Below are positions 6,795-50,827 of a stretch of DNA of 64,000 nucleotides, one piece after another. The translations under genes were made by a program, and so were the position numbers. How positions within the stretch are numbered: position 1 is the first letter of the stretch; each line of letters begins with the position of its first letter. The notes beneath the pieces are model-generated. The model searched no databases and was not told the DNA's origin. It saw only the letters and a program-made list of their open reading frames with translations. The stretch comes from a virus (taxonomy: Duplodnaviria > Caudoviricetes), in the IMG/VR virus record IMGVR_UViG_3300021399_000009, positions 1 to 64,000 of that record; one strand, given 5' to 3'.

Positions 6795-6923
6795 TTGACA
6801 AAGTACAAATCGTGTGGTATAATATAAACATAGAGAGAACAGAAAGCTCTGTTTTCTCTATGTTGCTCCGGTTACAAAGTACAAATCGTATTTATTTATA
6901 TTCCTGTAAAGTATAAATAATAT
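6795..6923 (+). promoter_or_regulatory. Strong sigma-A promoter with three AAAGTA(H)AAAT(M)(R)T(R)T operator copies and a 5' hairpin
   Basis: TTGACA 6795, TATAAT 6818; motif at 6800, 6876, 6908; hairpin 6827-6864. Confidence 0.85.
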
Positions 6924-8592: not shown

Positions 8593-10626
8593 ATGACATT
8601 CGTTGAAATGAGAACAAAAATGCTTGAACACTTTGCGGAGATGACAAAGGATTCAACAGAACTTTTTGAGGTAAGTCTTGACAAGGATAAGCTCTGGGAT
8701 TTATACCTTGAAAGTTTCCCACCTGAGAAGAACAAGATATTCAGAGAACGTAGAGAACATGATTGTTCTTGTTGTCGCCACTTTATTAAGACAATGGGTA
8801 ATGTGGTAGCAATCAAGGATGGTAAGATTATTTCTCTTTGGGACTTTGATATTGAGGGTGATGACACATATGAACCTTCAATTAAGGCAATGAGAGAATA
8901 TGTTCATGAGTGTGCTATCAGAGATGCGTTTTGTACAAAAGAAAGACGTATTGGAACAGAGTACAACAGAGAACTCTCCGATGGTCAGCTTCGCACTTGG
9001 GAACATTTCTATGCAGACATTCCTAATAAGTTTGTAATTACAAATGGGGATTCTAAAGAAACAAGACAGGGACTATTTCGTGATACAAGAAACGTATTCA
9101 AGCGTTCACTTGACGAGATAACAGAAGAAGCTGTTAATGTCGTTCTTGAACTTATCGCACAGGGTTCTCTTTACCGTGGCGAGGAACATAAGGGAGTTCT
9201 TGAAAGGTTTGCAAGTTATCAGGTAAAATACAATCAGCTTACCAATGAGCAGAAAGAAATCTTTGCTTGGGAGTATGCGAGTGAAGCTGGTATAGCTATC
9301 GGCAAAATAAGAAATCATTCTATTGGTACACTTCTGACAGACATTTCCGAGGGAGTTGACCTTGATAGAGCGGTAAAAAGTTATGAAGCTATTGTAGCTC
9401 CTGCCAATTACAAGCGACCAAAGGCTATTTTTACAAAGCGTATGCTTGAAGATGCTAAGAAAACTATTTCAGACCTCGGTTATATGGATTCATTAAAGAG
9501 AAGATACGCAACTCTTGATGACATTACTGTAAACAATATTCTGTTCTCTAACAGGGATTCTGCAAAACGTATTTCTGGTGCAGATATATTTGACGAAATG
9601 GCTGCAAGCGTGGCTATTAATCCCAAGAAGTTCAACAAAGTTGAAGAAATCAATATTGAGAACTTTATTGAGAACGTTCTCCCTACTGCACAGGAGATTG
9701 AAGTTCTGTTCGAGAACAAACTCGCCTCTAATATGGTAAGTCTTATTGCTTCTGAGAACAAGGACAGTAAAACAATGTTCAAGTGGGACAACAATTTCTG
9801 TTGGGCTTACGCTGGTAACGCAACAGATTCAATGAAGGAAAGAGTTAAGGCTGCTGGTGGTAGCGTTACTGGTGATTTAAGATTCTCTATTCAGTGGAAT
9901 GAGGACGGAAATGACAACTGTGACCTTGATGCTCATTGCATAACACCAATCAATGGTGATGAAATCTATTACGGTCATAAACGAAGTGTTACTCACGGCG
10001 AACTTGACGTAGACATAATTCATCCCGATGGTAGGGTTGCTGTTGAGAATATAACTTGGGCTAACAGGAATAATATGAAGGACGGTATTTATAAGTTTTA
10101 TGTTCATCAGTTTGGTGGTAGTGCAAGGAATGGTTTCAGAGCAGAGATTGAATTTGATGGTCAGATTTATAGCTTTGATTATTCTCATTCTATGAGATAC
10201 AAAGAAAAGGTGTTTGTTGCAGAAGTGATATTAAAAAATGGTCAGTTCACAATGAAACCTTTGCTTTCAGAAAATAATGTTTCAAGTAGAGAAGTTTGGG
10301 GACTGAATACCAATCAGTTTGTGCCTGTATCAGTGATTATGTATTCACCTAATTATTGGGACGAGCAGAAGGGTATAGGCAATAAGCATTATTTCTTTAT
10401 GTTAAAGGATTGTGTAAATCCTGAGACACCTAATGGCTTCTATAACGAGTTTCTTAATAATGAACTTGACAAACATAAGAGAGTTATGGAGGCTCTTGGT
10501 TCTAAGCTTGCTGTCACCAATGCTGATGACCAGCTTAGTGGTATCGGATTTAGTTCTACTAAGCGTAACTCAATTATCGTTAAGGTCAAGGGTAAGACCG
10601 AGAGAACATTAAAGATTATTTTTTAA
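8593..10626 (+). CDS. Large phage protein of unknown function; C-terminal YfaP/DUF2135-like domain
   Basis: 677 aa; HDCSCCRHF Cys cluster; LRFSIQW..DLDAHC..GELDVD..VENITW. Confidence 0.75.
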   Translation: MTFVEMRTKMLEHFAEMTKDSTELFEVSLDKDKLWDLYLESFPPEKNKIFRERREHDCSCCRHFIKTMGNVVAIKDGKIISLWDFDIEGDDTYEPSIKAMREYVHECAIRDAFCTKERRIGTEYNRELSDGQLRTWEHFYADIPNKFVITNGDSKETRQGLFRDTRNVFKRSLDEITEEAVNVVLELIAQGSLYRGEEHKGVLERFASYQVKYNQLTNEQKEIFAWEYASEAGIAIGKIRNHSIGTLLTDISEGVDLDRAVKSYEAIVAPANYKRPKAIFTKRMLEDAKKTISDLGYMDSLKRRYATLDDITVNNILFSNRDSAKRISGADIFDEMAASVAINPKKFNKVEEINIENFIENVLPTAQEIEVLFENKLASNMVSLIASENKDSKTMFKWDNNFCWAYAGNATDSMKERVKAAGGSVTGDLRFSIQWNEDGNDNCDLDAHCITPINGDEIYYGHKRSVTHGELDVDIIHPDGRVAVENITWANRNNMKDGIYKFYVHQFGGSARNGFRAEIEFDGQIYSFDYSHSMRYKEKVFVAEVILKNGQFTMKPLLSENNVSSREVWGLNTNQFVPVSVIMYSPNYWDEQKGIGNKHYFFMLKDCVNPETPNGFYNEFLNNELDKHKRVMEALGSKLAVTNADDQLSGIGFSSTKRNSIIVKVKGKTERTLKIIF

Positions 10627-10641
10627 GGAGGAAAACTAATT

Positions 10642-11016
10642 ATGAATATTTTTGAAAGAGCAGTAAGAGAAAAGACACGTTTTGCTTTTAAGGGTAGTAT
10701 CGGAGTAGAGGAACTTTGGGACTTGTCCCTTACTAACCTTGACACCATTTATGGTAATCTTGAAACAGAGCTTGAAGGTCTGCCTAAGAAGTCTCTGCTC
10801 TCCACTAACTCTAAGCAGAGAGAGGAAATCGAGTTCAAGCAGGAGATTATTAAGTATATCGTAGAAACAAAGAAAGCAGAAGCAGAGCAGATGTCTGTTG
10901 CCAAGGAGAACTCAGCTAAGAAGCAGATGATTCTTGATATTCTTGCAAAGAAGCAGAATCAGTCTTACGAGAATATGAGTGTGGAGGAACTTACCGCACT
11001 GGCTAATAGTCTGTAA
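10642..11016 (+). CDS. Hypothetical coiled-coil protein, partner of the upstream gene
   Basis: IFERA.R.K.RF..KG...EELWDL motif; strong RBS. Confidence 0.75.
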   Translation: MNIFERAVREKTRFAFKGSIGVEELWDLSLTNLDTIYGNLETELEGLPKKSLLSTNSKQREEIEFKQEIIKYIVETKKAEAEQMSVAKENSAKKQMILDILAKKQNQSYENMSVEELTALANSL

Positions 11017-11027
11017 GACAAATGAAA

Positions 11028-11056
11028 TAGTGACCGTATGAACAATGCGGTCACTA
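11028..11056 (+). terminator. Intergenic hairpin (terminator or stabiliser)
   Basis: tagtgaccgtat-5 nt-atgcggtcacta. Confidence 0.55.
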
Positions 11057-11082
11057 AAGTTTAATATTTAAGGAGCGTAAAT

Positions 11083-11625
11083 ATGAGCAAAACGGCTATT
11101 CGTAAAGGAACATTTGAAACTAATAGTTCAAGTGTACATTCAATATGTATATCAAAGAAACCAGTTGGTGCTGTTAAGGGAAAGAAAATTTCATTTTATC
11201 TTGGAGACTATGGATGGGAAAATGAAAGCGTTGATGTAGCGGATTATCTTTATACTGCTATTATGTGTCAGAGCAATTCCGAGGAACTTCTCGATAAACT
11301 GAAATCAATTCTTGACAAGTATGAAATTAATTACACATTTCAGCCAATAGAAAGGGCTTTTCGTTGGTGGGGAATTGACCACTCAGGAGAAACAATTGAT
11401 TTTGTAAATGCCGTACTTGAAGATGAGGATTTACTTCTCAGGTGTCTATTTAATGATGATAGTGTTGTATATACAGGCAATGATAACGATGATGCACGTT
11501 ATGATACCTGTTATCAAGCAATAGAAAATAAAAGTTGTTTTAACCACGAAAAGAATGAATGGGAATCAAAATCAAATCCGTATCACGATGAAAACAATTT
11601 TGATTATTTTATAAAAGGAAACTAA
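11083..11625 (+). CDS. 'ETNSSS'-motif protein 1
   Basis: N-terminal IRKGTFETNSSSVHSICI. Confidence 0.8.
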   Translation: MSKTAIRKGTFETNSSSVHSICISKKPVGAVKGKKISFYLGDYGWENESVDVADYLYTAIMCQSNSEELLDKLKSILDKYEINYTFQPIERAFRWWGIDHSGETIDFVNAVLEDEDLLLRCLFNDDSVVYTGNDNDDARYDTCYQAIENKSCFNHEKNEWESKSNPYHDENNFDYFIKGN

Positions 11626-11640
11626 TAGGAGGATTTGACA

Positions 11641-12012
11641 ATGAAAGAAACAATTCGCAGAGGTATTTTTGAAACCAATTCTTCAAGCGTACATTCGATA
11701 GTTATGTGCAATAGTGATGAATACAACAAGTGGCGTAACGGAGATGTATACTATGACCGTTGGAATACAAAATTTGTTAAAGCAAATGATTCAATTCTCA
11801 AAGCAAGAGAGTGTGAGTCGTATGACCAAGCATATAGTCTTTATATAAGTGATAAGGAGAATGAGTTTTATAGTGACTGCTATCACAGATTTTTAACTTG
11901 GGACGAGTTTTTTAATGACTATGAATATATAGACCATGAAACTTTTAAAGATGAATACACTACCAAATCAGGTGAAACAGTTGTTGCTTTTGGATATTAC
12001 GGACACGATTAA
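11641..12012 (+). CDS. 'ETNSSS'-motif protein 2
   Basis: N-terminal IRRGIFETNSSSVHSIVM; ends FGYYGHD. Confidence 0.8.
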   Translation: MKETIRRGIFETNSSSVHSIVMCNSDEYNKWRNGDVYYDRWNTKFVKANDSILKARECESYDQAYSLYISDKENEFYSDCYHRFLTWDEFFNDYEYIDHETFKDEYTTKSGETVVAFGYYGHD

Positions 12013-12022
12013 GGAGGATGTA

Positions 12023-12925
12023 ATGCGTATATTAGGCAGATATAAAAATGGCAATATTACTACAACAATATTAGACGATGGCACAAAGATAAGAAGAACA
12101 GAGGATGATGAATTTCGTCCTCTGTATGCCGAAAATTGTGATGTAAAAATTACAGACCATTGCGATGGTGGTTGCCCGATGTGTTATGAAGGTTGTACAG
12201 CAAATGGCAAACACGGTCAGTTGTTTGACTATCCAAATCTTATTGAATCACTTCATCCATACACCGAACTTGCCTTAAACGGCAACGACCTTTCACATCC
12301 CTTACTTGTACCATTTCTTTTAAAGCTAAAGGAAAAGAAAATAATTGCCAATCTTACAGTGAATCAGATGCACTTTGAGAGATATTATAATTTTATTTGT
12401 GATATTGTTGAAAGCAATCTGATTCACGGTCTTGGTATTAGTCTTAATAATCCTACTGACAACTTTATCACTAAGGTTAAACACTTTCCTAATGCGGTAA
12501 TTCATACTATTAATGGTGTTCTTACACAGATACAAGCAGAGAAGCTGGCTGATAATGATTTGAAAATTCTTATTCTTGGATATAAATATATGGAACGTGG
12601 AGTTAGCTATTATCTGGACAATGAGAATGAACTAAAGGCAAATCAGGCTTGGCTGTATAATCATCTTGATGAACTCACACAGAGATTCAAGTGTGTTTCT
12701 TTTGACAACCTCGCCATCAAGCAACTTGATGTCAAGAGATTAATGTCAGAAGAAGAATGGGAAACGTTCTATATGGGTGATGACGGTTCGTTTACATTCT
12801 ATATTGATATGGTTGATGGCACTTTCGGTAAGAATAGTCTGACACCAAAATACAAACGTATTCCCATTGGTGATAAAACCATTGACGAAATGTTCGAGAT
12901 TGTAAGAAATAATAATTGGGACTAA
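12023..12925 (+). CDS. Radical SAM enzyme
   Basis: CDGGCPMC (CxxxCxxC) preceded by DVKITDH; AGGAGG RBS before ATG 12023. Confidence 0.9.
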   Translation: MRILGRYKNGNITTTILDDGTKIRRTEDDEFRPLYAENCDVKITDHCDGGCPMCYEGCTANGKHGQLFDYPNLIESLHPYTELALNGNDLSHPLLVPFLLKLKEKKIIANLTVNQMHFERYYNFICDIVESNLIHGLGISLNNPTDNFITKVKHFPNAVIHTINGVLTQIQAEKLADNDLKILILGYKYMERGVSYYLDNENELKANQAWLYNHLDELTQRFKCVSFDNLAIKQLDVKRLMSEEEWETFYMGDDGSFTFYIDMVDGTFGKNSLTPKYKRIPIGDKTIDEMFEIVRNNNWD

Positions 12926-13271: not shown

Positions 13272-14354
13272 ATGAGCAGAAGTTTGGCACATATCGAAAG
13301 AGTAGAATGGATTAAACCTATTGAGGGTAAAGATAGAATTGTTCTTGCTGGTATTCTTGGCTGGCAAGTTATTGTCAAGAAAGACGAATTTGAAGTTGGT
13401 GACTGCGTTGTTTTCTGTGAGATTGATTCAGTATTTCCCGAAAAGCCTGAGTTTGAATTTCTTAGAAAGAATAAGTTCCGTATTCGCACAATGAAAATGG
13501 GTGGAGTTCTTAGTCAGGGTATTGCTTTTCCACTTTCAATTCTTCCAGTTAAAGAATATACAACAGGAGAAGATGTTACTGAGCTTATAGGAATTACACA
13601 GTATGAACCTACAATGGATAAAGAAATTTCTCATAAAGAGACACAGCCTGTAAAGCATTATCCTGAGTTTTTAATGCGTTGGAAGTGGTTTAGAAAACTT
13701 GTTCTTCCCAAGAAGCAGTATAAGGGGTTTCCCACCTTTGTAAGTAAGACTGATGAAACAAGAATCCAGAACGCACCATTCTATTTGGATATGGATTGCA
13801 ACTGGATTGCTACTGAGAAAGTAGATGGTCAGTCAGGTACTTTCACCTTACAGCGTATAAAGGGAAAGCATTTTTGGAACAAGGATAAATATGATTTTGC
13901 TGTATGTTCACGCAATTTAAGACTCTACACCGAAGATAGTTCATCTTATTGGACAGTGGCAAATAAATATAATATTAAGGACGTTCTTCTTTCTCTTATA
14001 GGAGAGAATGAATGGGTTTGCATACAAGGTGAGTGTATCGCCCCTAATGTACAGAAGAACAAATACCATGTTGACGAACCAGACCTTTATGTATTCAATG
14101 TTATTTTCCCAAATGGAAGAATGAATAGCATTGAAGCCAAAGCTCTTATGTCAGACAAGGGGTTAAAGTTTGTACCAATTATAGATGAATCAGTATCTTT
14201 AAAGGGAATGACAGTTAATGAAGTTCTTACCTATGCTACTGGTAAATCAGAATTATATGATACTTTGCGTGAAGGAATTGTACTTCGTTCACTCGATGGC
14301 AAGCAGAGTTTTAAGGCTGTTAGTCCTGACTTCCTGATTAAAAATGAGGAATGA
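13272..14354 (+). CDS. ATP-dependent RNA ligase (DRB0094/Rnl2-like, N-terminal OB-type module)
   Basis: TEKVDG (KxDG), CSRN, QGE, FNV, EGIV, FKAVS; N-terminal PIEGKDRI..EIDS..SQG. Confidence 0.88.
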   Translation: MSRSLAHIERVEWIKPIEGKDRIVLAGILGWQVIVKKDEFEVGDCVVFCEIDSVFPEKPEFEFLRKNKFRIRTMKMGGVLSQGIAFPLSILPVKEYTTGEDVTELIGITQYEPTMDKEISHKETQPVKHYPEFLMRWKWFRKLVLPKKQYKGFPTFVSKTDETRIQNAPFYLDMDCNWIATEKVDGQSGTFTLQRIKGKHFWNKDKYDFAVCSRNLRLYTEDSSSYWTVANKYNIKDVLLSLIGENEWVCIQGECIAPNVQKNKYHVDEPDLYVFNVIFPNGRMNSIEAKALMSDKGLKFVPIIDESVSLKGMTVNEVLTYATGKSELYDTLREGIVLRSLDGKQSFKAVSPDFLIKNEE

Positions 14355-48498: not shown

Positions 48499-50352
48499 AT
48501 GTACGCAGAAAAATACGAAAAGTATCGTAATAAGATTGATTTTATAAACAGTTATAGAAAAGCAAAGAACGCAGCAACAGGTTCTAAGTATGATAGCAAC
48601 GCAAACGTAGAACATAAAAATATTTGTACTTGTGCAGGAGAGCTTGTAAAAGGAGATAAGATAGGTGTTAACCGTCTGCTTATGATAAATAAGATAACAG
48701 AAATGTGGGGCAAAGAACTTGCAGATGAATATATCAGACAGCTTGAATCTCACGAAATTTACAAACACGATGAAACAAATATATCACCGTACTGCGTTGC
48801 TATAACAATGTACCCTTTTCTTCTTAATGGTTTAAGAGAGCTTGGTGGTGTTTCAAAAGCTCCTAAACATATTGAATCCTTTTGCGGTGAGTTTATTAAT
48901 CTTGTTTATGCCATAGCCGCTCAATTTGCTGGTGCGGTGGCTACTCCCGAAGTTCTTCTTTACATGGACTATTTTATAAGAAAAGATTACGGAGATGATT
49001 ACATAAATCATCTTGACGAATATGTTACCCCACCTTTTGCGAAAAATCCTAAGACACTTAAACAGTTAATTGAAGGATATTTCCAGCAGATAGTTCATAG
49101 TATTAATCAGCCAGCAGCAGCAAGAGATTACCAGTCTTGTTTCTGGAATGTTTCTTATTTTGATAAGCCTTATTTTGAAGGTATGTTTGGAGAGTTCCTT
49201 TTTCCTGATGAAACAGAACCTATATGGGAAACATTTAACTGGTTACAGAAACACTTTATGATTTGGGTTAATACCGAAAGATTACACTATGACCTTTCTT
49301 TCCCTGTCGAAACAGTTAATCTTCTTAATGATGGTAAAGAAGATTTTGTTGACGAAGATTGGGGCGATTTTCAAGCAGAAATGTACTCGAAGGGTGCTTG
49401 GTTCTTCACATATTCAAGCAATACAGTTGATAGTCTCAGCTCGTGTTGTCGCCTGAGAAATGAGGTAAGTGAAAACACATTTAGTTTTACCCTTGGTGCA
49501 GGAGGTGTGTCAACAGGTTCTAAGGGAGTAATGACTATTAACATAAATAGGCTCGTGCAAAACGCTGTACGTGATGGCAAGGACATCTCCGAAGCTGTCA
49601 GAGAACAGGTTAAAAAAGTTCATAAATACCTTGCAGCTTATAATGAAATAGTGTGGGACAACTTCAAGGCAAATATGCTTACTGTTTACAAGGCTGGATT
49701 TATTGACCTCGACAAGCAGTACCTCACTATTGGAATCAATGGATTTGTTGAAGGTGCGGAGTTTCTTGGTATTGAAATTTCACCCAATGATGCTTATTTT
49801 GAATACGGTGAAAAGGTATTAAAGCCTATTTACGAAGAAAATAAAAAAGCAAAAACGGAACACTTAATGTTTAACACAGAGTTCGTTCCTGCTGAGAATC
49901 TGGGAGTAAAGAACGCCAAATGGGACAAGGAAGATGGATATGTAGTTCCAAGAGATTGTTACAATTCTTACTTCTATATTGTTGAAGATGAAACAACAGA
50001 TATACTTTCTAAGTTTGAACTTCACGGTAAGAAGCTCACTAAGTATCTCGATGGTGGTAGTGCGTTACATAATAACCTTGCAGAACATCTCACAAAGGAA
50101 CAGTACGCAATACTTAATAAAAAGGCTATCAAGGAAGGCTGCTCATACTATACACACAATGTAAAAAATACAGTATGTAATAAGTGCGATTATCGTTCTA
50201 AGCATACACTTGATATTTGTCCTCGTTGCGGAAGTCGTGACCTTGATTACATAACAAGAATTATAGGTTATACAAAAAGGACATCTTCTTTTGCAGAACC
50301 AAGACAAAAAGAAGAAGGCAGAAGATTTTATGGGAAGTATGCAAAGGCTTAA
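48499..50352 (+). CDS. nrdD: Anaerobic (class III) ribonucleotide reductase, no ATP cone
   Basis: IYKHD, SSCCRL, EFVPAE, GGS, CNKC/CPRC, RIIGY glycyl-radical loop. Confidence 0.93.
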   Translation: MYAEKYEKYRNKIDFINSYRKAKNAATGSKYDSNANVEHKNICTCAGELVKGDKIGVNRLLMINKITEMWGKELADEYIRQLESHEIYKHDETNISPYCVAITMYPFLLNGLRELGGVSKAPKHIESFCGEFINLVYAIAAQFAGAVATPEVLLYMDYFIRKDYGDDYINHLDEYVTPPFAKNPKTLKQLIEGYFQQIVHSINQPAAARDYQSCFWNVSYFDKPYFEGMFGEFLFPDETEPIWETFNWLQKHFMIWVNTERLHYDLSFPVETVNLLNDGKEDFVDEDWGDFQAEMYSKGAWFFTYSSNTVDSLSSCCRLRNEVSENTFSFTLGAGGVSTGSKGVMTININRLVQNAVRDGKDISEAVREQVKKVHKYLAAYNEIVWDNFKANMLTVYKAGFIDLDKQYLTIGINGFVEGAEFLGIEISPNDAYFEYGEKVLKPIYEENKKAKTEHLMFNTEFVPAENLGVKNAKWDKEDGYVVPRDCYNSYFYIVEDETTDILSKFELHGKKLTKYLDGGSALHNNLAEHLTKEQYAILNKKAIKEGCSYYTHNVKNTVCNKCDYRSKHTLDICPRCGSRDLDYITRIIGYTKRTSSFAEPRQKEEGRRFYGKYAKA

Positions 50353-50827
50353 ATATCTTGGTCGCTCCATAGTTTTTCAAGAAGTACCAAATGAAATAAG
50401 TCTTGCTATAAACGTTAGTGGTTGCCCTTACAAATGTAAGGGTTGCCACAGCTCTTATTTGTGGGATTACAAGGGTAGATACGTCAGTGATGATATTAAA
50501 GCATTAATAGATATGCACGATGGCATTACTTGTGTTTGTTTTATGGGTGGCGACCAAAACCCACAAGAGCTTAATAAGCTAATAGATTATATCCATTCAA
50601 GGGGACTAAAAGTTTGTTTATATACTGGAACAGACAACATTCCAAAAGATATATTTCATTTGGATTATCTTAAAATAGGTCATTACTCAGAAGAGCTTGG
50701 AGGGCTTGACAAACCAACAACAAATCAAAAATTTTATGTTGTACATGATGACAAAGAATACTTTGATATGACTATTATGTTTAGAAAGGAAATGCAAAAT
50801 GTCATTAAAGATAATAAAGAATCCTGA
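50339..50827 (+). CDS. nrdG: Anaerobic RNR activating radical SAM protein
   Basis: FQEVP, GCPYKCKGCH, MGGD, LYTG, TTNQ. Confidence 0.9.
   Translation: MQRLKYLGRSIVFQEVPNEISLAINVSGCPYKCKGCHSSYLWDYKGRYVSDDIKALIDMHDGITCVCFMGGDQNPQELNKLIDYIHSRGLKVCLYTGTDNIPKDIFHLDYLKIGHYSEELGGLDKPTTNQKFYVVHDDKEYFDMTIMFRKEMQNVIKDNKES

Follow-up and report, generated by a model that had tools for sequence, protein, structure and literature searches.

A predicted phage radical-SAM enzyme encoded beside partner proteins that share an N-terminal tag

Gene organization and sequence features of the locus

The 64,000-nucleotide stretch analysed here (the window) covers positions 1 to 64,000 of the IMG/VR virus record IMGVR_UViG_3300021399_000009, which belongs to a Caudoviricetes phage with a genome of 108.6 kb. 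It contains three tightly packed genes, which encode two acidic proteins, P1 and P2, and a protein with a CxxxCxxC motif (Table 1). An earlier note, made from the sequence alone, had drawn attention to two adjacent and otherwise dissimilar ORFs with nearly identical N-termini, a closely linked CxxxCxxC radical-SAM gene that is distinct from NrdG and lacks an obvious SPASM cysteine cluster, and a hairpin upstream of the trio. All of these sequence observations were confirmed.

Table 1. Coordinates of the features discussed in the text
Feature	Position	Strand	Description
Strong promoter	6795-6823		Only strong promoter found upstream of the trio
RNA hairpin	11028-11056	+	12-bp stem
P1 gene	11083-11625	+	180 aa; large client class, PHROG 28997; AAGGAG site at 11070-11075
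Tag of P1	11098-11145	+	Residues 6-21, IRKGTFETNSSSVHSI
P2 gene	11641-12012	+	123 aa from the ATG (a TTG at 11635 would give 125 aa); small client class; AGGAGG site at 11628-11633
Tag of P2	11653-11700	+	Residues 5-20, IRRGIFETNSSSVHSI
Predicted radical-SAM enzyme gene	12023-12925	+	300 aa from the ATG behind an AAGGAGG site (the mechanical ORF starts at 11936); PHROG 16999, 'Fe-S oxidoreductase'
CxxxCxxC motif	12161-12184	+	CDGGCPMC, residues 47-54 (C47, C51, C54); putative site of the SAM-cleaving [4Fe-4S] cluster
NrdD gene and NrdG-like gene	48499-50827		Unrelated to the enzyme

The similarity between P1 and P2 is confined to their N-termini. BLASTP aligned only residues 3-23 (15 of 21 identical, E 1e-7), and a profile-profile comparison of the two families aligned only the first 23 columns (E 1.1e-16). 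Synonymous codons differ between the two copies of the motif (AGT/TCT, AGT/AGC, TCA/TCG, CGT/CGC), so selection acts on the protein. In the whole 108.6-kb genome the motif occurs exactly twice, both times at this locus.

The hairpin is stable (-18.7 kcal/mol, z -5.7, 0 of 200 shuffled sequences folding as well), but it is not followed by a T-run and was not classified as terminator-like. Thus, it is more likely a processing or stability element or a weak attenuator than a canonical terminator. The earlier note had proposed that the hairpin sets the trio off; considering also the position of the only strong upstream promoter, the three genes are probably part of a longer operon rather than a transcriptionally isolated unit.

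P1 belongs to a family of 1376 clusters at 90% identity and is not merely a carrier of the motif. Its invariant positions include R7, E12-S17, H19, S20, T131-D134 and N180, while D99 and H100 are conserved in at least 90% of the aligned rows, and the protein displays further conserved motifs outside the tag (IDH, YTGNDN and a C-terminal KGN). The predicted structure is confident (pLDDT 88) except for residues 1-13, which have values below 50. The first part of the tag forms a low-confidence N-terminal arm, whereas its last part starts strand beta1 of the model. Foldseek found no match to the P1 model below E 0.5, and a VIA comparison with 48,161 chains gave a best Z of 2.3, i.e., the predicted fold has no match in the PDB. 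PIN, Toprim, Ntn-hydrolase, AdoMetDC/pyruvoyl, HAD and metallophosphoesterase folds had been considered because of motif resemblances (F-E-T-N, D-x-D-like, G-N-D-N), but none of them appeared in the lists of structural matches and they were dismissed as unsupported. P2 belongs to a family of 629 clusters and consists of the tag, a variable linker and a conserved C-terminal segment ending in AFGYYGHD. In related phages, members of this small class are usually encoded directly upstream of the enzyme.

Sequence searches provided little information on the three proteins. Pfam and NCBIfam gave no hit for P1, P2 or the enzyme, and PHROGs returned only unnamed families or 'Fe-S oxidoreductase'. Searches of PDB sequences, with single sequences and with profiles, yielded only marginal hits to the radical-SAM cluster region for the enzyme and nothing for P1 or P2, and the ESM Atlas returned only viral hypothetical clusters, without a structure, for P1 and P2. 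Literature searches on the tag motif and on phage or viral radical-SAM enzymes returned no paper, a search on Ma-LMM01 and Fe-S oxidoreductase returned nothing relevant, and no publication on the module was found.

Predicted fold of the enzyme and its linkage to the tag

The AlphaFold2 model of the enzyme (pLDDT 96.9) shows an N-terminal three-stranded beta-sheet, followed by a radical-SAM barrel and a cysteine-free C-terminal subdomain. The top 21 VIA matches (Z 9.7-17.5) are all radical-SAM enzymes, and most structural neighbours are peptide or protein maturases. The best matches are SkfB (Z 17.5), SuiB (16.7) and EpeE (15.6), with PqqE, ChlB, anSME and CteB also among the top ten, while PflA (10.2) and QueE (8.3) score well below. 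Foldseek probabilities are 1.00 for SkfB, DesII, CteB and SuiB. Across 69 family representatives, the three cysteines of the CxxxCxxC motif are the only invariant or nearly invariant ones, i.e., there is no SPASM or twitch cluster. The window protein has no Pfam hit at E <= 0.1, and two homologues match PF04055 only at about 22 bits, against a cut-off of 29.5. This indicates that the family is too divergent for the Pfam model and does not argue against the fold. No NCBIfam radical-SAM family matched at E <= 1, and the enzyme does not fall in QueE or any other characterized small-molecule family. The earlier note had named membership in such a family, or motif proteins usually occurring without the enzyme, as outcomes that would refute its proposal; neither was observed, as motif proteins almost never occur without the enzyme. 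In some homologues, inteins sit in the CxxxCxxC and GGN motifs, which fits a catalytically constrained enzyme.

The linkage between tag and enzyme is very strong in both directions. All 80 viral loci found through the enzyme carry one to five tagged ORFs on the same strand within about 2 kb. Conversely, of 80 loci found through a DNA pattern for the tag, 64 contain the enzyme, always on the same strand and at a median distance of about 380 nt, and eleven more have it elsewhere in the same record. One further locus (L160) lies on the same contig as another (L002) that has it. Thus, 76 of 80 tag-bearing records hold the enzyme, and three of the four exceptions are trivially explained; one intact tagged gene, however, lies in a 74%-complete contig in which no enzyme was found. 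No other neighbour family occurs in more than 21 of 81 loci, and the tagged proteins are therefore the only constant partners of the enzyme. The linkage is kept in the cultured cyanophage Ma-LMM01 (gp130 tagged, gp128 enzyme) and in the Lak megaphages.

At least nine bodies that are unrelated by BLAST carry the same tag, with the consensus M-K-R-Q-I-R-R-G-V-F-E-T-N-S-S-S-x-H-S. R(-4), E, N, S, S, S and H are invariant in 140 of 140 unique sequences, although the search pattern allowed alternatives, and the F lies 9-10 residues from Met1. The tagged proteins are acidic and comprise 97-243 amino acids. Nine further client classes showed no domain in Pfam and PHROG searches and matched PHROG 28997 only through the tag. 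Natural single-ORF fusions of tag, P1-like domain and enzyme also exist (the sequences labelled P0400, P0440, P0462 and P0463), and they retain the invariant tag. In contrast, a suspected fusion, a 513-aa frame in the sequence labelled G007, turned out to be an upstream ORF that is read through in frame; by eye it is possibly a homing endonuclease, but it has no Pfam hit. The R-R-G-V-F stretch of the tag resembles a twin-arginine motif, but a Tat signal was rejected because no hydrophobic region follows.

A putative protein-modification module and alternative readings

The most likely reading, which we consider only somewhat more probable than not, is a self-contained phage module in which a single radical-SAM enzyme recognizes the N-terminal tag of co-encoded client proteins and modifies it after translation. 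In this view, the basic, flexible arm (about residues 1-16) would project from the folded client and be captured by the enzyme, perhaps against its conserved N-terminal beta-sheet, in the way RiPP maturases hold their leader peptides. The invariant E-T-N-S-S-S-x-H stretch would then lie over the [4Fe-4S]/SAM site, the 5'-deoxyadenosyl radical would abstract a hydrogen from one tag residue, most plausibly a serine, and the modified client would be active. The window carries the commonest layout, with a large client (P1), a small client (P2) and the enzyme. The occurrence of one tag on many bodies is the pattern of a system with one enzyme and many tagged substrates, the low confidence of the arm next to a confident P1 body fits an arm that is free to enter another protein, and the retention of the invariant tag in the fusions argues against a role as a mere tether.

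The interpretation of the earlier note, that the Ser-rich motif is a substrate or recognition tag or becomes a post-translationally made catalytic centre, is supported only in part. The three genes form one conserved module, and the gene linkage, the invariance and fixed position of the tag, the radical-SAM fold, the absence of auxiliary-cluster cysteines and the natural fusions are established by the analysis. That the tag is the substrate rather than a docking or active-site arm, which residue is modified and by which chemistry, that a catalytic centre is created and what the clients do are in contrast inferences, which rest on genomics and predicted folds and not on an observed modification. 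In addition, the second half of the tag (x-H-S-I-C-I) is a core beta-strand in the P1 model and not a free leader. The enzyme also lacks the auxiliary clusters that anSME, the sactisynthases and SuiB use for oxidative chemistry, and those chemistries cannot simply be transferred.

Fusing an enzyme to its own substrate is unusual and fits a permanent-subunit model at least as well. A possible but less likely alternative is that the tagged proteins are interchangeable subunits of a radical-SAM holoenzyme. The unmodified tag would serve as a docking arm that completes the active site, its E, N, S and H residues would bind SAM, a metal or the true substrate (a nucleotide, nucleic acid or metabolite), and the variable bodies would supply substrate specificity. 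This is in line with the strict one-operon linkage, often with almost no intergenic gap (nearest tag motif 1-54 nt from the enzyme ORF in ten loci), with the enzyme-like appearance of P1-like bodies with their conserved D, H and N motifs, and with the presence of viperin and BlsE, small-molecule enzymes that likewise have no auxiliary cluster, among the structural neighbours. Moreover, the module sits among RNA and DNA metabolism genes, i.e., an RNA ligase gene in the window, and a His-tRNA-synthetase-like gene and a primase in Ma-LMM01. On the other hand, up to five tagged ORFs per locus, from at least nine unrelated body clusters across the sample, serve a single enzyme, the small P2-like class has no conserved polar motif outside the tag that could build a binding site, and no other pathway gene is conserved nearby. 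The invariance of seven tag residues across all body classes is also more typical of a substrate motif read by one active site.

P1-like, 230-aa-class and fused bodies share further acidic motifs (G-I-D-H, and a hydrophobic strand followed by D/N-x-D/N), and the tag could therefore be part of the clients' own active site. According to this unlikely reading, it would be a catalytic or metal-binding motif comparable to the N-terminal DxDxT of HAD phosphatases, and the enzyme would only supply a cofactor or metabolite without contacting the tag. The additional invariant polar positions of P1, the location of H19 and S20 in core strand beta1 and the acidity of all clients, as in many metal-dependent enzymes, are consistent with this possibility. 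However, bodies without detectable similarity share the tag, the P2-like class lacks the IDH and GNDN motifs, and the fusions and the conserved adjacency imply physical interaction. The fixed distance from Met1 and the conserved basic K-R-Q-I-R-R stretch are also hard to explain as an active-site feature.

A sorting signal, for example a capsid-targeting sequence, with only an incidental radical-SAM link, appears very improbable. Capsid-targeting sequences of T4 internal proteins are cleaved by the prohead protease after a Glu, and the V/T/I-F-E stretch of this basic, fixed-position N-terminal tag on otherwise unrelated small acidic proteins resembles the I/L-x-E cleavage sites of T4-type proteases; a degradation tag would be a further variant. 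Yet, sorting explains neither the near-obligate same-strand adjacency in both search directions nor the fusions, the genes lie in a non-structural operon among an RNA ligase gene and genes without a known domain, and the invariant residues are those that follow the Glu (T-N-S-S-S-x-H).

A more far-reaching version of the modification model, which is not excluded but remains speculative and unlikely, is that one of the three invariant serines is converted into a carbonyl or electrophilic residue. This could be formylglycine, or alternatively dehydroalanine formed by a viperin-like dehydration, which could hydrolyse to an N-terminal pyruvoyl group and release the basic arm. Either route would install a protein-derived cofactor that switches on several new-fold, phage-only enzyme families, and would constitute a phage-specific maturation system with new radical-SAM chemistry that needs no auxiliary clusters.

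Distribution and relation to known radical-SAM systems

Radical-SAM enzymes that act on proteins are few (glycyl-radical activases, anSME, RimO, Dph2 and RiPP maturases), and each of them opened a new area of chemistry. The enzyme family described here is very large, with more than 7400 clusters at 90% identity and 2235 at 50%, and its pairing with tagged proteins recurs in thousands of phages. The family is kept in phages from 100-kb gut phages to the 540-kb Lak megaphages and a cultured cyanophage. It appears to be restricted to phages, as it was not found in 398 sampled cellular genomes. Understanding the putative modification would probably define new enzymology and assign a role to several thousand phage 'hypothetical proteins', whose acidity, small size and shuffling between related phages fit functions in host takeover or counter-defence. 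Ma-LMM01 offers a cultured phage system in this respect.

The closest structural relatives are RiPP radical-SAM maturases with an N-terminal recognition domain, i.e., SkfB (PDB 6EFN, 267 residues aligned) and SuiB (5V1Q/5V1T, 282 aligned), and also EpeE/YydG, CteB, ChlB and PqqE. The alignments span residues 1/3 to 300 of the model, including its N-terminal part, although sequence similarity is marginal (profile E 0.02-0.04). As proposed here, one enzyme reads a conserved N-terminal segment of co-encoded gene products, and several substrates can serve one enzyme. The phage enzyme differs by the absence of SPASM or twitch cysteines. At the position of an RiPP recognition element (PqqD-like winged helix), the model has three short strands (residues 3-25) in front of the barrel, and the SkfB and SuiB alignments, for which no residue-level correspondence could be derived, begin at residues 3 and 1. 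The putative substrates are conserved proteins, with a confidently predicted fold in the case of P1, and not short precursor peptides with leader and core, and there is no conserved neighbouring family that could encode a protease or exporter.

The anaerobic sulfatase-maturating enzyme anSME/AtsB (PDB 4K36, Z 13.5) modifies a Ser or Cys in a short invariant motif near the N-terminus of many different folded clients and thereby creates their catalytic residue, which resembles the proposed role of the phage enzyme. However, anSME has two auxiliary clusters in a SPASM domain, the sulfatase motif C/S-x-P/A-x-R is absent from the tag, and the clients have no Pfam sulfatase hit. Glycyl-radical-enzyme activases (PflA, PDB 3C8F; NrdG) are small radical-SAM enzymes without auxiliary clusters that act on a folded partner encoded next to them, as may apply here. 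Yet, the structural similarity to PflA is lower, the tag has no invariant glycine (the G at position -2 varies), P1 and P2 have no glycyl-radical-enzyme domain, and the phage has its own NrdD/NrdG pair elsewhere. Viperin (Z 14.8, rmsd 3.3 A, the best value) and BlsE/DesII-type enzymes (BlsE Z 15.1) act on nucleotides or sugar nucleotides and have no tagged protein partners, and the phage enzyme has no NCBIfam viperin hit. Nonetheless, they share a similar core with a cysteine-free C-terminal extension, and they show that dehydration, deamination or decarboxylation chemistry is possible without auxiliary clusters.

Gene organization and the shared N-terminal tag

The three co-oriented genes for P1, P2 and the putative enzyme are separated by very short gaps, and each is preceded by a strong ribosome-binding site. 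The stable hairpin upstream of the trio has a 12-bp stem (-18.7 kcal/mol, z -5.7), but it lacks a T-run and was not called terminator-like. As the only consensus promoter nearby is located further upstream, the trio is probably transcribed as part of a longer operon. The window covers the first 64 kb of a 108.6-kb phage genome with 35% G+C. The separate NrdG-like activase represents a second, unrelated radical-SAM enzyme and, together with NrdD, points to an anaerobic host.

Coordinates of the module, of its surroundings and of features observed in related loci
Location	Feature	Details
6795-6823	Consensus promoter	The only one nearby
8593-11016	Two genes directly upstream	677-aa PHROG 1735 protein and 124-aa PHROG 2018 protein, both of unknown function
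11028-11056	Hairpin	Just upstream of the trio
11083-11625	P1, large tagged client	180 aa
11641-12012	P2, small tagged client	123 aa from the ATG that matches the start of the homologues
12023-12925	Predicted radical-SAM enzyme	300 aa, from the ATG behind an AAGGAGG site
13272-14354	RNA ligase	PHA02142 OB-fold plus RNA_ligase domains; two genes downstream of the module
48499-50827	NrdD/NrdG pair	NrdD (617 aa), overlapping an NrdG-like activase (178 aa)
L140:3195-4799; L137:2142-4583	Enzyme homologues interrupted by inteins	Also seen in proteins P0402, P0417 and P0469
L210:3476-5017 (record G007)	513-aa open frame	Upstream ORF in frame with the radical-SAM gene
L198:6415-6492 (record G002)	Remnant of a tagged gene	25 codons, tag followed by a stop
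L197:5345-6034 (record G011)	Intact tagged gene	229 aa

The observation of the earlier note, that P1 and P2 share a nearly identical motif at their start, holds, and the similarity is confined to the N-terminus. BLASTP aligned the two proteins only over residues 3-23, with 15 of 21 residues identical, and profiles of the two families, comprising 1376 and 629 clusters at 90% identity, aligned only over the first 23 columns (E 1.1e-16). The codons for the shared residues differ at synonymous sites, including a six-fold serine codon switch, indicating that it is the protein that is conserved. A six-frame scan of the whole phage genome revealed the motif exactly twice, in P1 and in P2.

The predicted radical-SAM enzyme and its tagged clients

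The enzyme has no hit in Pfam or NCBIfam and matches only PHROG 16999, annotated as 'Fe-S oxidoreductase'. The family is nevertheless large, with more than 7400 clusters at 90% identity and 2235 clusters at 50% identity. An AlphaFold model built on 69 diverse representatives is very confident (pLDDT 96.9, pTM 0.92) and shows three short N-terminal strands, followed by a radical-SAM barrel and a C-terminal subdomain consisting of helices, a β-hairpin and a final helix. Comparison of the model by VIA-align with 48,161 PDB representatives gave the highest score for SkfB, and Foldseek was in agreement. C47, C51 and C54 are the only invariant cysteines, and thus a SPASM or twitch cluster is absent. 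The N-terminal sheet is among the best conserved parts of the protein; N9, G10 and G20 are invariant, and Y7 and T21 are nearly so.

VIA-align scores of the predicted enzyme structure against selected PDB representatives
Match	Z
SkfB	17.5
SuiB	16.7
EpeE	15.6
BlsE	15.1
viperin	14.8
PqqE	14.1
ChlB	13.8
anSME	13.5
PflA	10.2
QueE	8.3

The nearest cellular relatives found by the profile are generic SPASM/MoaA/viperin-type enzymes, which match only the core at E values of about 1e-10. None of 398 other sampled genomes of one bacterial phylum contains a full-length family member. The only three close matches among 185,579 species genomes are located on 100-150 kb contigs, each with 3-4 tagged ORFs beside the enzyme, and these look like phage contigs that were binned into MAGs.

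P1 is conserved along its whole length and contains, in addition to the tag, the motifs G-W, D-Y-L-Y-T-A-I, I-D-H and Y-T-G-N-D-N, and a C-terminal Y-F-x-K-G-N. Its model is confident (pLDDT 88, pTM 0.84) except for residues 1-13, which fall below 50, while the x-H-S-I-C-I part of the tag is predicted to form strand β1. Neither Foldseek (best E 0.5) nor VIA against 48,161 chains (best Z 2.3) identified a similar solved structure, and P1 may represent a new fold. P2, in contrast, consists of the tag, a variable linker and a conserved C-terminal segment, G-E-x-V-x-A-F-G-Y-Y-G-H-D.

In 80 related loci, 180 tagged ORFs were found, which fall into at least nine BLAST-unrelated clusters when the tag is removed. 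None of them has a known domain. All are acidic (pI about 4.2-4.8), but their first 12 residues are strongly basic. R(-4), E, N, S, S, S and H are invariant in 140 of 140 unique sequences, although the search pattern allowed substitutions, and the F is located 9-10 residues from Met1. The commonest gene order is large client, P2-like client and enzyme, which is exactly the order in this window. In some large phages, including Lak-like ones (loci L017, L026, L103 and L131), the tagged genes instead lie downstream of the enzyme, 4-6 in tandem and with almost no gap after the enzyme gene. The P1-like, 230-aa-class and fused bodies share weak common motifs, namely G-I/Y-(V)-D-H/E and a hydrophobic strand followed by D/N-x-D/N. 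The larger classes may therefore constitute one very divergent superfamily, whereas the P2-like class lacks these motifs.

Linkage between tag and enzyme

The linkage was tested in both directions. Starting from the enzyme, all 80 viral loci carry 1-5 tagged ORFs on the same strand, directly upstream or downstream. Starting from a DNA pattern for the tag, 64 of 80 loci contain the enzyme, always on the same strand and at a median distance of about 380 nt. In each of the 16 loci without it, the tag is located within 1.4 kb of one end of the retrieved stretch, so the enzyme could lie just outside. Searching the full records revealed the enzyme in 11 more cases, and one further locus (L160) lies on the same contig as another locus (L002) that has it. 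Of the four remaining cases, one is a 6.8-kb fragment and one has its tags 310 bp from a contig end. The third is the remnant in L198, which lies next to a DNA methyltransferase-like gene in a record without the enzyme, and where the module appears to have decayed or been deleted. The fourth is the intact tagged gene in L197, the only candidate orphan client found, with no radical-SAM gene within 5 kb and none found in its 114-kb, 74%-complete contig. All seven tag-bearing records in this re-examination that are at least 90% complete have the enzyme.

No other neighbour family is present in more than 21 of 81 loci; thus, the module comprises the enzyme and the tagged proteins and nothing else. 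The pairing is also maintained in distant phages, namely the cyanophage Ma-LMM01, in which an untagged gp129 separates the tagged gp130 from the enzyme gp128, and the Lak megaphages.

Four representatives (P0400, P0440, P0462 and P0463) are single ORFs consisting of tag, P1-like domain and enzyme, with the invariant tag retained at the extreme N-terminus. These fusions and the enzyme-like motifs of P1 fit the main alternative explanation, in which the tagged proteins are exchangeable subunits whose arm completes the active site for some other substrate. The multiplicity of clients and the motif-poor P2-like class fit this view less well, and we consider it possible, but the less likely reading. 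Other homologues carry Hint/LAGLIDADG inteins inserted exactly at the third cysteine of CxxxCxxC or at the G-G-N SAM-binding motif, in line with catalytically constrained sites. In L210, an ORF that by eye resembles an HNH/AP2-type homing endonuclease, but which has no Pfam hit, sits directly upstream of the radical-SAM gene and in frame with it, and is preceded by three tagged genes.

A possible tag-processing system

An invariant terminal tag at a fixed position, present on many unrelated bodies and, in nearly all loci examined, linked to one dedicated enzyme, is the signature of a tag-processing system. In addition, the arm carrying the invariant residues is predicted to be flexible. We therefore favour, with moderate confidence, a reading in which the enzyme binds and modifies the arm. 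While the linkage, the invariance of the tag and the fusions are directly evident from the sequences, binding and modification of the arm are inferred from genomic data and predicted structures, and the proposal of the earlier note, that the motif serves as substrate or recognition tag of the enzyme, or becomes a post-translationally made catalytic centre, is only partly supported. We found no publication on this system.

The nearest structural relatives of the modelled enzyme are peptide maturases, but it lacks auxiliary clusters and has no conserved spare cysteine. The oxidative, cluster-assisted chemistries of anSME or the sactisynthases, as well as Cys-dependent epimerisation, can therefore not simply be assumed. 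Although this remains conjecture, hydrogen abstraction from a serine, followed by dehydration or by oxidation that returns the electron to the radical-SAM cluster, would be possible in principle, as in viperin and DesII.
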